Source: Naegleria gruberi
Taxonomy: Eukaryota
Assembly: GCA_000004985.1 (NCBI GenBank)
Contig: GG738878.1
Direction: 5' to 3' (one strand)
Length of the DNA stretch: 64,000 nucleotides
In this document: positions 13,306-62,400 of the stretch, piece by piece
Layout of the letters: the number at the start of each line of letters is the position of its first letter
Numbering within the stretch: the first letter of the stretch is position 1
Position numbers and translations under genes: made by a program
The notes under the pieces: generated by a model
The model's database searches: none
The model's input: the letters and a program-made list of their open reading frames with translations, nothing else
What the model was told of the DNA's origin: nothing

Positions 13306-13609
13306 TTTTTATTAGAAACTTAACGAATTAATTATTTATTATTAGAAAACGTGATATTAATTAATTTACAAATCATTTCTACTTTGATTTTCACAAGTAC
13401 ACTGTCCATCACATTCTCGATCATTGTTGTGAGATTTACGAATCAAAGACCATTCACGTTGATATAAAAAACATGATCAATATCTTGTGAATAATTCTTT
13501 TTGGCAATTGATCTACCTTAATATTTTTCCCTTTATATTTGTTGCTACATTTAAATTCGAATATGGAATACAAAGTTTCTAAAATAAAAATTAATTGGAA
13601 TGGAAAATT

Positions 13610-13700
13610 TGATGAGAGTGGGATTTGAACCCACGCCCTTGCGGAACACGGTATTAATAATACCTTAACGTGTCGTCTTAGACCACTCGACCATCTCACC
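13610..13700 (-). tRNA. tRNA-Leu (anticodon AAG) with putative 11-nt intron after position 37
   Basis: Reverse complement GGTGAGATGGTCGAGTGGTCTAAGACG-ACACG-TTAAGG[TATTATTAATA]C-CGTGT-long variable arm-GTGGGTTCAAATCCCAC-TCTCATC-A; Leu-type D-loop and long variable arm; canonical T-loop. Confidence 0.7.
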
Positions 13701-13813
13701 ATTGAAAAATCGAGTTTTTACTAATATAATATTTTTTGCTTAGCATTGAACTTGGAATATTCAATTTTGAAATAATAATAAAAATAAAATTAAAGTTCAT
13801 TAAGTTCAAAAAA

Positions 13814-56376: not shown

Positions 56377-57678
56377 ATGAAAACATCTCTCTTGGTTTTA
56401 TGCACCTTGATGGTACTCTGTGTATCCATTATGGCTGTGTCTGGCTCCTTCTTGGAACAAATTGTGGAAATGTCACTTTCTGATTCTAGAAGTTTCAAGT
56501 CGGGTGGTGGTAGCTCTGGAGGAGGTAGCAAATCTGGAAGCAGTAGCAGCAGCTCTGGAAAGTCATCCAGTAAGTCATCCTCATCCTCCAGTAAGAGTAC
56601 TAGCTCTAGTAAAACCTCCACTTCAAAGAGTTATAGCAAGTCAACTGTCTCATCAAAGATGGCCTCAGCTTATTCTCAATATGCTAACAGTAGAATTGCT
56701 GGTATGAAGAATCCAGCCAGCACCATGGCTGGTCTCAAAGCTGCCAATTTGAATGCTCGTTTAAGTGCTCAACCAACTGCTACTGTCAATGGTAAATTGA
56801 CTGCTGCTGGTATCAAGGCCTCTTATCAAAATCGATTGAATACAAGAGTTGCTGCTGCCTATCAACAATATGCTCAATCCAGAATGGCTGCTGCCAAACC
56901 AACTGCTAAGCCAACCAATATTGCTGCAGCTTATCAACAATACGCCCAATCTAGAATTGCTGGTATGAAGAATCCTGCTAGCACTTTGTCTAAACCAACT
57001 GCCAAACCTGCCAATATTGCTGCTGCCTATCAACAATATGCTCAGTCCAGAATTGCTGGTTTGAAGAATCCTGCCAGTACTCTCCCAGGTAGTTTCAAGA
57101 TTGATAAGGGTTTGCTTACTGTTAATGAAGGTAAACCTGCCACTACTGGTTACGTTCCACAATCCAAGGCAGGTACTGTCATTGGTAAATCAGGTGTTAC
57201 TGTTGGTACTGGATTCGATGTTGGTCAACAAAATGTTAAGGGTTTGAAAGCTCTTGGACTTTCACCAAGTTTAGTCGACAAGCTTTCTCCATACACTGGA
57301 TTGAAGCAACAAGCAGCTAAGGACTTTTTGGCTAAGAATCCATTGTCCCTATCGCCTGCTGAAGTTGCATCCATTGATAAGGCAGTTATGGACAAGTTTT
57401 CTGCCAATTTGGCCAAAGATTATGCAGCTGCTGCTGCCAAGAATCCAACTGCTGTCAAGAATTTCAAGGATTTGCCAGCTCCTGTCCAATCAGTTGCTTA
57501 CAGTGTCTACCATCAATATGGAAGCTTCTCCAAGACTCCAAGCTTCATGAACAAGTTGGCCACCAATGATTACAATGGAATGGTTCATGAATTGAGAAAC
57601 TTTGGTGATTCTTACTCAACAAGAAGAAATCGTGAAGCTGATCATTTGGAAAGTGGTTTGAAGGCTGCTTCAGGATAA
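56377..57678 (+). CDS. Secreted protein: signal peptide + Gly/Ser-rich linker + AAYQQYAQSRIAGMKNPAST repeats + C-terminal GH24 phage-type lysozyme-like domain; paralog of 45787..47121
   Basis: MKTSLLVLCTLMVLCVSIMAVSG signal; C-terminal ~200 aa about 80% identical to the paralog (…STRRNREADHLESGLKAASG). Confidence 0.6.
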   Translation: MKTSLLVLCTLMVLCVSIMAVSGSFLEQIVEMSLSDSRSFKSGGGSSGGGSKSGSSSSSSGKSSSKSSSSSSKSTSSSKTSTSKSYSKSTVSSKMASAYSQYANSRIAGMKNPASTMAGLKAANLNARLSAQPTATVNGKLTAAGIKASYQNRLNTRVAAAYQQYAQSRMAAAKPTAKPTNIAAAYQQYAQSRIAGMKNPASTLSKPTAKPANIAAAYQQYAQSRIAGLKNPASTLPGSFKIDKGLLTVNEGKPATTGYVPQSKAGTVIGKSGVTVGTGFDVGQQNVKGLKALGLSPSLVDKLSPYTGLKQQAAKDFLAKNPLSLSPAEVASIDKAVMDKFSANLAKDYAAAAAKNPTAVKNFKDLPAPVQSVAYSVYHQYGSFSKTPSFMNKLATNDYNGMVHELRNFGDSYSTRRNREADHLESGLKAASG

Positions 57679-57774: not shown

Positions 57775-59602
57775 TTAAAATCTCTTCCTCCTAATCAATT
57801 CAACCACCTCACTCATAAATTCCCTATCCTTGATGAGTTCTGGAGAAATAGATGTTAGAGAGCTGATTCCATGTATATTGAACAAATTCTCATCATGTTC
57901 CAACGCTGTGAGAACCACTTCCTTGTCCCTCTTAATTCTCTCATCGAACAATTGCAACAATGGGCCACTAATGGCTACAACTTGCAATGCAAATGATTTG
58001 TTGTGAAATAGTCCAGGTTGGAATAGCTTGAGTTTGAAAAGAGAGAAGGGATTTGACTTGCAAGCTTCGATAATCATATCAAAATCATCCTTGAATTTGG
58101 TCTTGTGAAGAAGATAGCCATTCTTTCTGATAGCTTCCAAGACGAAATCTCTGTTACCTGTTAGATCTGGGTGCAGGTAGCAATTTTCAGAATCTTTGGA
58201 TCCAATCGAATCAAGTACGAATTCCTTATTGAGTTGGAATGATTCGTGTGCGTATTCAAGTGCAGAGCTGTTCTGTTTCACTGCTGTTCGAATAATTTCC
58301 TCGTCCATCTTTAAATCATCACTAGCAAATTGTAAATCAGAACCTCTTCTTGCAACAGCTGTTAATACAATCTCTCTATCGCAGCGAAACCCTTCTGGTG
58401 TTACTGAGAGTGACATTCCATTCCTAACAAGGTTCATCACAACATTCCTATTCTTCATTAAAGAATCATTTATACCCTTCAAAGAGGTAATTTTGAAATT
58501 ATCTAAACAATGGTTAATAAACTCCTCGTCCTGTTTTAAATCTTTTGAAATGAAAGGAAATGCTTCCAAACTATTATTCATGGCTTCCAAAGCTATGACC
58601 TTATCTGATTTTAGAGATTGAGAAGCAAACTTTAACGATCCACCATTAGACTTAACTGCCTCTAAAACAATCTCCCTATCACTCCTTAACAGATCACTTG
58701 CATGATTCAAGTCATTTCCACAAGCTCTGACACATTTCAATACCAAATCTCTGTCCTCTCTGGCATCATCATTAAAGTAATCCAAACATCCACTTAATTC
58801 TACTCCAATACATGCTTCCATCACTTCCCTATCAGAGAAAACCTCAAATGGTAATTGATTAAGAGCAATCTTTGTTCCTTTCAAGGCTTCCAAAATCACA
58901 AATTTATCATTTTGCAAATCATCATCCAGCATTATGTAATTTCTAAAGTTATTCCTCACAGCTGTCAATATTAATTCTCTATCACTAACCAACAATTCAT
59001 CACTGATATACTCTGTAATAGAATGGCCAGTTTGAGCTGCAACCATCAACAATTCCCTATCATTGGAAATTAATTCGGAATAATCTTGCTCTTCTTCATC
59101 AGTGCGATGAGAGGATGGCAACGATTCCAAATAATTAAGCAATATATTAATACTCAAACCTCGCCTAATAGCTTGCAAGAATAATTCTCTACTACTTGGT
59201 GTTGTATTCATCAAATAATCTTCATACAAGACACTTAATTTAGAGAGAAACTTTTCCGATTTGAAACACAATACATCATCATTACCTTCATCACTTGTCT
59301 GCATTGTAGAATAATAGCTTGCACCAAAAATCAAAGGATTCCTTGATAAATTCATCATCCAAATAATCAAAGCAATCTAAATTGATGGTGGTAATGGCTT
59401 GAATAATCTTCTCTCGATCGGAAATGAATTTTACAAGTGATGGATATGAAGAAAGAGTTTTTAAGAGTTTGTTTTCGAGAATTTCAGTTTGATATTTGAA
59501 TTGCAGTAAATCTGAGGTTGATGATTGGAAATGATCGAGTAAAATTACGACTAGATGTTCCTTCATTTTTTTTGTCTTTTCAATATATTGATTTAGATGC
59601 AT
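57775..59602 (-). CDS. DUF4116-repeat protein (two ORFs, 59291..59602 and 57775..59370, overlapping in different frames)
   Basis: ~10 tandem ~38-aa repeats of the REIVLxAVxxNGxxLxFASxxLKxDxE form. Confidence 0.55.
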
Positions 59603-59697
59603 CTGTTACTCATCCGTAAGGTTTAAGTTGTTTCCTTAATAAATAAACATTGTTATTACATACTATATCATTGCATATTTCACAAATTTGATGTGAG

Positions 59698-59770
59698 CGC
59701 CGTTAGATCAGTTGGTTAGATCGTCAGCTTTACACGCTGAAGGTCAAGGGTTCGACTCCCTTACGGCGTA
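59698..59770 (+). tRNA. tRNA-Val (anticodon TAC)
   Basis: GCGCCGT-TA-GATC-AGTTGGTTA-GATC-G-TCAGC-TTTACAC-GCTGA-AGGTC-AAGGGTTCGACTCCCTT-ACGGCGT-A; G1:U72 wobble. Confidence 0.8.
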
Positions 59771-59906
59771 TCTTTTTTAGGCCATCTTTTCCTTACTCCC
59801 TAAATCTTGCAAATTTTCTCTAAACTCTTATAAATTGTGTCAAATGATACCAATAATTTTTGTAAAGTTTACAATAAAATCTGTTTTAAAAAATAGCCCA
59901 AATTGA

Positions 59907-61226
59907 ATGAAGGAAATTATTCCCCTCTGTTTTGGACAATGTGGTATCAATATTGGCTCTGATTTTATTCAACAAATCTACAGGGAACATTTTTTCCCTT
60001 CCAAATCTTCATCCTCATCAATTCATGATCGGAATGCTAATTATAATGAAAATGATGAATTGATGATGAATACAATGAGAGGAGAAGCCTCTATTTACTT
60101 TTCCGAATCATCCAATAGTACATTCACCTCTCGGGGTCTTTTAATTGATTTACAAAGCCAATTTAAATATCAATCTAAATTGTTGAATAATGATGAAATA
60201 CAAAATACAATTGATTTGAATAATAATGTAATATTTCCAAGACAGAATGGTGTGTATTGCTCTCCAGATTGGCCAGGTGGTAAATATGAATCCGGAGCTG
60301 ATTTATTTACCAATGATGTGATGGATCGAGTGAGGAAATTATTGGAGGATTGTGATTCGTTTCATGGATTTCAGTTTTTTCATGGGATGGTTGGATCTTC
60401 GAGTGGTTTCTACTCGAGAATTTGTGCACATTTGAGAGAGGAGTATCCTGATAAGATGTTTTGGTCATGTAGTGTATTTCATGATTCCAAGAGTGAGGAT
60501 AAAGCAGTGTGGATGTATGATTCCATATTGACCTTTCAGTACATGATGGAGCTCAATGATATGATTACCTGTGTGAGGAATAGTGAGCTAATTGATAAAT
60601 GTGTACAGAATGGAAAGGATTATCCAACTTATAGAGATTATAATAATGTGATTAGAAGCTTCTTTCCAAACATTACATCAGTTTTTAGGTATCCTTCTCA
60701 ACAAGGATGTGATTTGAGGAAAATGTGTCTCAATCTTGCACCTACCAGACACTGCTTGATTGAAGTTAGTGAAACTACTGCTTTACAAAATGAGACAACA
60801 CCTATTTATGAAACAATTTATAATTTGAATAGTCAATTGATTCAACAAAAGAGTTCAGAGAAGATCCTTTCTGCCATTTCAATATTGAGAGCTAGTGGAA
60901 CATTGGGCTTGGAAGCAGAAAGAAACCTTCGGAAATCAGTCAAAGATCATTCACAATCAGAATTTCCATTCAAACCCCTTGTTGTGAATCAACAATCAAG
61001 CGATAACACGATCAGCAATACATTGCTTACCAACTCTTCATCAATTACCACGGCTCTGGAAAATATTTATGAAGTAACAGAAAGATTTTTCAGAAGGAAA
61101 ACTTTCATTTATGGATACACAAGAGGAGGATTAGAGGAAATGGAAATTACTGAATCTCAGTATTATCTTCGAGAGGCTATTGATACTTATACAGAGAGCG
61201 AACCTAAAGAAGATGAACTTGCTTAA
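59907..61226 (+). CDS. Divergent tubulin-superfamily protein (cryptic tubulin-like)
   Basis: MKEIIPLCFGQCGINIGSDFIQQ parallels tubulin MREI(V/I)x(I/L)QxGQCGNQIG; degenerate T4 (HGMVGSSSGFYSRI) and T5 (EYPDKMFWSCSVF) loops; 439 aa. Confidence 0.5.
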   Translation: MKEIIPLCFGQCGINIGSDFIQQIYREHFFPSKSSSSSIHDRNANYNENDELMMNTMRGEASIYFSESSNSTFTSRGLLIDLQSQFKYQSKLLNNDEIQNTIDLNNNVIFPRQNGVYCSPDWPGGKYESGADLFTNDVMDRVRKLLEDCDSFHGFQFFHGMVGSSSGFYSRICAHLREEYPDKMFWSCSVFHDSKSEDKAVWMYDSILTFQYMMELNDMITCVRNSELIDKCVQNGKDYPTYRDYNNVIRSFFPNITSVFRYPSQQGCDLRKMCLNLAPTRHCLIEVSETTALQNETTPIYETIYNLNSQLIQQKSSEKILSAISILRASGTLGLEAERNLRKSVKDHSQSEFPFKPLVVNQQSSDNTISNTLLTNSSSITTALENIYEVTERFFRRKTFIYGYTRGGLEEMEITESQYYLREAIDTYTESEPKEDELA

Positions 61227-61587: not shown

Positions 61588-62400
61588 TTACTTTCCTAAA
61601 GCAAGAGCCAAGAATCCAGTTTCCTCTGCCAAACAAATTTCATATCCATCACAATCAGAAATAATCACCACTTCAACATCGGCCTTTCCAGGTGTTGGTA
61701 AAACAATTGGTTCCTTAACAATGGAAATTCCAGTCGAAACAAAAACTTCCTCTTCCTTTGCTTTCAATACTTTTTGATGCATTTCCTTAATATCGACCTT
61801 TGATGAAATTGCCAATCGACCAAAAGCTTCTCCATGAATCAATTCCTCACTCTCACTCAATTGAACAAATTCAATTTTGGCTTGATCTTGAGCAAAACCT
61901 AATAGGGCTCTATTTTCTCCTCTCTTGAAAACTTGCATTCCCAAAACTTGAGTATAGAATTGAATTTGTTTTTCCAAATTCTTGGTATGAAGTGAAATGT
62001 ATTGAACTTGATCATGTTCGAAAGAGTTTCTCTCACTTTCTTCCAAGTCTCTTTCTCTATTCACAAGCACATAGGTATATCCATTCGGATCAACAATAGT
62101 TTGCTTACTCTCAGCTGCCTTATCATGATGAATAACAATTTCTCTAAAATCATTACCCAACTTGTAACTCTTAATTCCATGATTTGCTGTCAATTCCAAA
62201 ACAAAGTGAAGATCTTCAGGTCCATATCCAATCATTGTCTTGGTCCAACTCAAATTATATCGACCATTACAAGCTGCTTCACATCCTGCATCAAATGATT
62301 CATGTCTCTGTTCAACCATGTTCAATTCCTTCTCATAGAATTGTTTAGACTTGGAATAGTTACCAATTTTGTGTACCCAATGAAGCATTCGGAATGACAT
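61588..62400 (-). CDS. GLOD4: Glyoxalase-domain-containing protein 4 (GLOD4)-like two-domain VOC protein
   Basis: FDAGCEAACNG, WTKTMIGYGPEDLHF, YKLGNDF, RALLGFAQDQ, AFGRLAIS and TPGKADVEVVIISDCDGYEIC all parallel GLOD4. Confidence 0.75.
   Translation of the reverse strand: MSFRMLHWVHKIGNYSKSKQFYEKELNMVEQRHESFDAGCEAACNGRYNLSWTKTMIGYGPEDLHFVLELTANHGIKSYKLGNDFREIVIHHDKAAESKQTIVDPNGYTYVLVNRERDLEESERNSFEHDQVQYISLHTKNLEKQIQFYTQVLGMQVFKRGENRALLGFAQDQAKIEFVQLSESEELIHGEAFGRLAISSKVDIKEMHQKVLKAKEEEVFVSTGISIVKEPIVLPTPGKADVEVVIISDCDGYEICLAEETGFLALALGK

Follow-up and report, generated by a model that had tools for sequence, protein, structure and literature searches.

An intact and deeply eroded beta-tubulin paralogue of Naegleria gruberi, probably impaired in GTP handling

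The 64,000-nucleotide stretch of Naegleria gruberi DNA analysed here (contig GG738878.1; hereafter the window) carries a gene that, judged from its sequence, is best explained as an intact, selectively maintained and divergent beta-tubulin paralogue, the product of which is probably a GTP-impaired tubulin-fold protein and not a regular building block of microtubules. The coding sequence and the segments compared with canonical beta-tubulin are as follows, with the basis of each assignment in brackets.

59907..61226, plus strand: complete single-exon coding sequence of a divergent beta-tubulin paralogue (439 amino acids plus TAA; XP_002675383.1 / JGI 88212).
59934..59951, plus strand: T1 loop GQCGIN (canonical GQCGNQ), residues 10-15, with G10, Q11 and C12 kept (alignments, pocket table).
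59991..60095, plus strand: expanded low-complexity H1-S2 loop, approximately residues 29-63, 14 residues longer than in beta-tubulin (anchor spacing).
60255..60281, plus strand: degenerate T3 loop YCSPDWPGG (canonical GAGNNWAKG), residues 117-125 (anchored on the conserved Trp and Gly).
60384..60410, plus strand: degenerate T4 'tubulin signature' loop GMVGSSSGF (canonical LGGGTGSGM), residues 160-168, one residue shorter (alignments, anchor spacing).
60498..60521, plus strand: degenerate end of the T5 loop, DKAVWMYD (canonical DTVVEPYN), approximately residues 198-205 (alignments, pocket table).
60711..60722, plus strand: T7 core DLRK, residues 269-272, kept and of beta type (alignments).
60723..60881, plus strand: S7 / M-loop / H9-S8 region, unrecognisable against beta-tubulin and net 10 residues shorter (spacing, AF2 model, no Tubulin_C match).
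61089..61151, plus strand: conserved H11-H12 segment FRRKTFIYGYTRGGLEEMEIT (alignments, anchor spacing).
61200..61223, plus strand: C-terminal tail EPKEDELA, without a poly-Glu run (about 12 residues shorter than the E-hook of beta-tubulin).

In the ORF list of the window, the reading frame runs without interruption from ATG to TAA, and no other ORF of at least 60 amino acids overlaps it on either strand; at the base composition of the window, the chance of 439 open codons is about 9e-15. With a GC content of 0.346 and a GC3 of 0.292, against 0.353 +/- 0.033 and 0.300 +/- 0.044 for the 34 large ORFs of the window, the ORF is typical of its surroundings. The encoded protein is 100% identical to N. 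gruberi XP_002675383.1 (EFC42639.1, D2VKR7; P0001) except for a two-serine indel, the two extra serines of the window protein lying in a serine run. The first-pass annotation had described a single exon, which is consistent with the deposited gene model, as this has the same start, stop and sequence save the two serines; the N-terminus MKEIIPLCFGQCGINIGSDF and the motif GMVGSSSGF (residues 160-168, nucleotides 60384-60410) that it quoted are both present. XP_002675383.1 is annotated as 'beta-tubulin', and the label 'LOW QUALITY PROTEIN' attached to the same sequence in one source probably reflects the in-frame difference in length of the serine run, not a defect of the gene. Thus, we are dealing with a native, intact and real N. 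gruberi gene. It is not a new one, being annotated, named beta-tubulin and included in a published phylogeny (XP_002675383.1, JGI 88212); in the literature searched, no paper mentions either the accession or JGI 88212, and we found no expression, localisation or biochemical data for the gene.

A near-identical copy of the gene is present in an environmental contig (ENA ERZ929261; P0005, locus L002), where it has the same downstream GLOD4-like neighbour. Between the window and this copy we counted 9 synonymous and 8 non-synonymous substitutions, and the only indels are in-frame and confined to a low-complexity loop. These 17 substitutions in one strain pair give a dN of 0.0076, a dS of 0.035 and a dN/dS of 0.22 (one-sided binomial test, p approximately 0.007); the GLOD4-like gene gave a dN/dS of 0.06 in the same pair, in which the downstream intergenic spacer diverges by 2.35% and the tubulin coding sequence by 1.29%. 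On the evidence of these 17 substitutions in a single strain pair, the gene is under purifying selection, with weaker constraint than its neighbour. The variable loop is the low-complexity H1-S2 segment (60003..60044, residues 33-46), which reads SSS in the reference and SSSSS in the window, while the environmental copy has HHDR and N in addition.

Apart from these copies, the protein has no close kin that we could recognise. An exhaustive HMMER search of 1.84 billion representatives returned 2209 tubulin matches, and none of them, self aside, exceeded about 32% identity; a word-indexed homologue search returned only 4 proteins, since the protein shares at most a few 5-mers with other tubulins. 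The best full-length non-self match was XP_002670151.1, itself a divergent N. gruberi beta-tubulin (153.5 bits, 31%). JGI metagenome contigs yielded no further alleles or orthologues. The published tree contains 26 N. gruberi tubulins and six from N. fowleri, all six in flagellar or mitotic clades, so that this set holds no N. fowleri counterpart. The gene thus appears to be confined to the N. gruberi lineage, or else to evolve too fast for its orthologues to be recognised.

Several features of the surrounding DNA are recorded here in their own right. At 56377..57678 (plus strand) lies a 433-amino-acid ORF whose C-terminal half matches Pfam Pesticin (PF16754; 231 bits, profile positions 1-156 of 156), a bacterial toxin homologue of phage lysozyme, and whose N-terminal part is low-complexity and mucin-like; from its sequence it looks like a lysozyme-like gene of bacterial or phage derivation, possibly acquired by horizontal transfer. 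The minus strand directly before the tubulin gene (57775..59370) encodes a 531-amino-acid protein with about 10 DUF4116 repeats (277 bits). A tRNA-Val(TAC) gene at 59697..59770 (plus strand) ends 137 bp before the tubulin ATG and has a copy of 100% identity in the environmental L002, while the upstream stretch 59416-59906, which includes it, shows 88 mismatches and 118 gap columns against L002. The poor alignment falls at 59416..59696, against positions 1..~220 of L002, whereas downstream the two differ by 1-2% only; this may reflect hypervariability or rearrangement of the spacer, or else an artefact of the alignment end. The downstream GLOD4-like gene (61588..62400, minus strand) encodes a glyoxalase-domain protein that matches GLOD4_C at 51 bits and Glyoxalase at 41 bits; it is strongly constrained, and its synteny with the tubulin gene extends to the environmental contig. 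Elsewhere in the window, at 13609..13701 (minus strand), ARAGORN reports a 93-nucleotide 'tRNA-???' with a two-base anticodon (ta), possibly an aberrant tRNA gene or one that contains an intron.

The descent of the protein from the tubulin/FtsZ superfamily, proposed in the first-pass annotation from its N-terminus and loop spacing, is borne out by profile, pairwise and structural evidence alike. The Tubulin/FtsZ GTPase domain (Pfam PF00091) is matched at 93.4 bits (cutoff 33, E 2.9e-26) over residues 3-232, corresponding to profile positions 1-189 of 190, and phmmer aligns residues 1-431 with residues 1-425 of PDB beta-tubulins at E 2e-43, so that the protein is collinear with beta-tubulin along its full length, H11-H12 included. 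The AF2 model (pLDDT 83.3, pTM 0.88) predicts the two-domain tubulin fold together with the eukaryote-type C-terminal helices H11-H12, and a pTM of 0.88 in spite of about 71% sequence divergence suggests that the residues determining the fold have been kept. In the intermediate domain, Pfam Tubulin_C (PF03953) found no match at E up to 10, while the same profile scores pig beta-tubulin at 150 bits and XP_002670151.1 at 92 bits; the fold of this domain is still predicted, with lower confidence.

Within the superfamily, the scores favour beta-tubulin over alpha, gamma and delta tubulins. Family profiles were built from the labelled references in Data S5 and S6 of Velle et al.; the protein scored 176.9 bits against the beta profile and 100.2 against the alpha profile, and all nine beta references (122-152 bits) ranked above all nine alpha references (55-98). 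It is 28-29% identical to canonical beta-tubulins, which fits its earlier description as a highly divergent paralogue, and 22% and 18-19% identical to alpha and delta tubulins, respectively. The closest structural matches of the predicted fold are likewise beta-tubulins. Alpha-tubulin has the catalytic Glu254 where the T7 motif DLRK of beta-tubulin has Lys, and the query has a beta-type DLRK, K252 being among its diagnostic sites in the beta state. The diagnostic sites as a whole are less clear: of 20 strict alpha/beta sites 6 are in the beta state, 4 in the alpha state and 10 in neither, which is not significant, while 71 relaxed sites give 22 beta, 7 alpha and 42 neither (p = 0.008). A neighbour-joining tree (Kimura distances, 200 bootstraps), dominated by long branches, grouped the protein with beta in 15, with alpha in 14 and with neither in 171 replicates and placed it near the delta outgroup, a long-branch artefact; its mean Kimura distance to beta is 1.75, against 1.10 between alpha and beta. 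In the full maximum-likelihood tree of Velle et al., the protein has a terminal branch of 2.52 substitutions per site and falls into a cluster of long branches basal to beta, which also takes in divergent tubulins of ciliates and further divergent beta copies of N. gruberi; it was pruned from the tree behind the published figure. Taken together, a beta origin is supported by the scores, the structure and a modest excess of diagnostic sites, most of the family-specific signal being gone. The idea of a 'cryptic tubulin' therefore agrees with a protein that belongs to the superfamily, derives from beta and has a degenerate T4.

The erosion of the protein was charted by anchor-to-anchor spacing, invariant positions and the nucleotide pocket. 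Length changes are given as net, alignment-independent differences between anchors, as HMMER and MAFFT place the indels of T3 and H10-S9 differently. Relative to pig beta-tubulin, the H1-S2 loop is longer by 14 residues and the H2 region by 7, and T4 is shorter by 1; the distances from T4 through H4, T5, T6 and H7 to T7 are conserved to within one residue, in line with the conserved loop spacing noted earlier. From T7 to S8 (S7, M-loop, H9-S8) 10 residues are missing and from S8 to S10 (H10-S9) 4; S10 through H12 is unchanged, and the C-terminal tail is 12 residues shorter. The H1-S2 loop differs in length between strains and is predicted to be disordered in the AF2 model, with pLDDT below 50 at residues 33-46, and the lowest confidence of the folded part falls at residues 281-320 (pLDDT 57-67). 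Nine beta-tubulins (animal, plant, fungal, Naegleria flagellar and mitotic) share 185 invariant positions, of which the query keeps 73, compared with 130 in XP_002670151.1 and 116 in pig alpha-tubulin.

None of the loops T3, T4 and T5 is intact, as is evident from CSPDW against AGNNW, V-GSSSG against GGGTGSG and AVWMYD against VVEPYN. Both gamma-phosphate-sensing Asn residues of T3 are lost, and T5 has a Trp in place of the Glu that contacts the ribose. The degeneracy of the GGGTGSG loop had been recognised from the start: T4 has lost one residue and three glycines, a state equalled by no other among 55 aligned relatives. We also scored 24 positions that we take to form the nucleotide pocket, assigned from established knowledge of beta-tubulin structure and each checked against the pig sequence. 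Eleven of the 24 are kept; of 55 divergent relatives in the alignment, one other has as few and none has fewer. In pig-beta numbering, the kept positions include G10, Q11 and C12 (T1), D67, D177 and the base contacts N204, Y222 and N226, and the lost ones include Q15, E69, G98/N99/N100 (T3), S138, G140, G141 and G144 (T4) and E181 (T5). The acidic C-terminus of the first description holds in a weak sense, with 5 acidic and 1 basic residue among the last 12, but the short tail EPKEDELA is not a canonical E-hook. The gene is the most divergent of the known 'bonus' beta-tubulin paralogues of this genome.

The nucleotide site that belongs to beta-tubulin itself faces the plus end and is formed by T1-T6; lateral contacts are made by the M-loop region and the H1-S2 loop, and the T7/H8 face of beta touches alpha within the dimer. 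In the query the phosphate loops T3 and T4 and the ribose contact in T5 appear to be gone with the base contacts left, which makes canonical GTP binding and exchange and a GTP-dependent longitudinal contact unlikely. The protein would then neither bind nor exchange GTP at the E-site as beta-tubulin does, and the canonical longitudinal lattice contacts at the plus end would be lost. With the M-loop region and the H1-S2 loop remodelled and the E-hook missing, canonical lateral contacts would not be expected either. A protein deprived of both GTP handling and lattice contacts would not be a regular building block of microtubules, and the description 'non-polymerising or regulatory', originally drawn from the eroded loops, is plausible. 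As T1 and the base contacts are kept, some nucleotide binding may survive.

The most likely role would thus be that of a monomeric, GTP-impaired ('pseudo-GTPase') tubulin-fold protein. Alternatively, it might bind an alpha-type partner through the T7/H8 face, which is better preserved, being the site of the best-preserved loop of the query. The resulting dead-end heterodimer could serve, specifically in the N. gruberi lineage, as a structural element, a cap or a sequestering agent. We regard as a tentative possibility the more specific idea that selection maintains a pseudo-GTPase outside the lattice, for example one that caps or sequesters alpha-type tubulin by this face; if true, it would represent a naturally evolved 'poison' or regulatory beta-tubulin.

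Two other accounts of the origin of the protein have to be weighed. The first-pass annotation had suggested a Misato/DML1-like protein, and the Misato-type profile Tubulin_3 (PF14881) does match the query at 33.4 bits, above its cutoff of 30 and above the scores of canonical pig beta-tubulin (14.3) and XP_002670151.1 (18.1). This marginal match, however, lies inside the 93.4-bit match to PF00091 and is not the best model of the tubulin clan. Replacing T4 of the query with the canonical loop lowered PF14881 to 28.2 bits, below the cutoff, and raised PF00091 to 114.6, while giving the query T4 to pig beta-tubulin raised its PF14881 score to 19.5 bits, indicating that the match is partly a by-product of the degenerate glycine loop. 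Moreover, Misat_Tub_SegII (PF10644) found no match in the query at E up to 10, although canonical pig beta-tubulin reaches 25.1 bits, and the query is collinear with beta-tubulin over its full length, H11-H12 included. At the level of profiles, then, Pfam architecture, these controls and the T4 loop swap speak against Misato/DML1, and we consider a Misato-family identity effectively refuted in favour of a beta-derived protein. An ancient tubulin family of its own, whose likeness to beta would be residual general tubulin conservation, would accommodate the distance to beta exceeding that between alpha and beta, the 171 of 200 bootstrap replicates with neither family, the ambiguity of the strict diagnostic sites and the 42 of 71 relaxed sites in neither state. 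Against it, beta leads every score ranking by a wide margin and comes first in the structural ranking too; the query has C12 and the DLRK motif specific to beta; in the published maximum-likelihood trees, the base of beta is where the protein, or the set of divergent N. gruberi tubulins, is placed; and the single-species distribution argues for a recent, fast-evolving duplicate, so that we think a separate ancient family very improbable.

Given a beta origin, the protein could still be a polymerising beta isotype that pairs with a divergent N. gruberi alpha in a specialised microtubule or filament, as in Tetrahymena, where BLT1 and BLT4 polymerise despite changed GTP sites and surfaces. The genome offers 7 divergent alpha paralogues as possible partners, the query has kept T7 DLRK, H11-H12, the base-contact residues and T1, and the gene is under purifying selection. 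Nevertheless, its erosion goes beyond that of the 54 other aligned divergent beta-like proteins (in T4 and T3, in the 10 residues missing around the M-loop and the 4 missing from H10-S9), Pfam Tubulin_C is undetectable, and Fulton considers such proteins unlikely to assemble alone; a polymerising isotype therefore seems unlikely to us. The same purifying selection bears on the opposite view, by which the gene is a functionless duplicate under relaxed constraint, a nascent pseudogene with its open frame left over. Such decay would fit a terminal branch that, in the part of the published tree accessible to us, is the longest among the N. gruberi tubulins (2.52 substitutions per site), the lack of an N. 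fowleri counterpart in that tree and of any relative above about 32% identity, a dN/dS 3-4 times that of the neighbour, the 'LOW QUALITY PROTEIN' label in one source, and the finding of no expression evidence in the literature searched. Exact-product look-ups came back empty for the tubulin and equally for the neighbouring gene used as a control, so that this absence carries no weight as to expression. Decay is nonetheless improbable, as 439 codons are open at a chance of about 9e-15, the frame is intact in the window, the reference strain and the environmental copy with in-frame indels only, dN/dS at 0.22 is below neutral (p about 0.007), and the predicted model is confident (pTM 0.88) at about 71% sequence divergence. 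We thus return to an intact, maintained and probably GTP-impaired tubulin-fold protein as the preferred reading.

Naegleria is the source organism of the multi-tubulin hypothesis. About a dozen divergent 'bonus' alpha and beta tubulins of N. gruberi are listed as unexplained in a review, and the gene described here is the extreme case among them, one in which the tubulin fold and purifying selection have been kept while most features of a GTP-driven polymer subunit have been lost. If it is expressed and functional, it would show what the tubulin fold is capable of without canonical GTP binding or lattice contacts and would provide a natural test of which residues in tubulin serve folding and which serve polymerisation. 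According to Fulton (2022), the highly divergent 'bonus' tubulins of the N. gruberi genome number 7 of alpha and 5 of beta type; they are uncharacterised and judged unlikely to assemble alone. The gene count of Velle et al. is 13 alpha and 9 beta. In the work of Findeisen et al. (2014), the divergent N. gruberi tubulins join the 'theta/iota' tubulins of ciliates in a position basal to beta, and four Paramecium members are reported to have lost the P-loop.

Compared with known proteins, the query shares with Misato/DML1 a tubulin-derived ancestry and a degenerate glycine-rich loop, along with its marginal PF14881 match, but the Segment II domain is missing from it, its collinearity with beta-tubulin extends through H12, and that match is owed in part to the degenerate T4. 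Against canonical beta-tubulins (pig TBB P02554, yeast Tub2 and the N. gruberi flagellar beta JGI 83350), to which it is 28-29% identical, it differs in its degenerate T3, T4 and T5, in a shortened and unrecognisable M-loop and H10-S9 region, in the loss of Pfam Tubulin_C signal and in a short, weakly acidic tail. XP_002670151.1 (P0155; 90% cluster of P0007) is a 'bonus' paralogue from the same genome with the same annotation; it is, however, far less eroded, having T4 GGGSGSG, 17 of the 24 pocket positions and a 92-bit Tubulin_C match, and at about 29% identity the two are not close sisters. A further divergent beta-like tubulin of 450 amino acids, from Logan SRR14932613 (P0002; L001 885..2237), has GGGTGSG intact, but its M-loop region contains an insertion that is acidic and rich in Ser, and its Tubulin_C match is weak (27.8 bits). 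The mitotic beta-tubulins of N. gruberi (JGI 55748 and 55900; Velle et al. 2022) are, like the query, lineage-specific divergent paralogues and at 146-148 bits rank among its top references, but they keep all GTP-binding loops and lattice-contact regions, have orthologues in N. fowleri and Acrasis and are expressed in dividing amoebae, properties none of which was detected for the query within the analyses made here.

The ciliate beta-like tubulins (Tetrahymena BLT1-6, Paramecium 'theta' and 'iota') offer another comparison, with their long branches at the base of beta alongside N. gruberi sequences, the absence of the P-loop from some of them and the absence of canonical tail modification motifs. 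In the published tree, the query stands beside divergent tubulins of Paramecium and Oxytricha, a grouping that is probably due to long-branch attraction because the neighbouring internal nodes are weakly supported. By its position in the maximum-likelihood tree, its degenerate T4 and its short tail, it falls in the descriptive class of ciliate/Naegleria 'basal beta-like' tubulins (theta/iota, BLT), which is a grade and not a demonstrated clade. Within this class, substitutions in the GTP sites and interaction surfaces of Tetrahymena BLT1 and BLT4 do not prevent these two from assembling into macronuclear and micronuclear microtubules.
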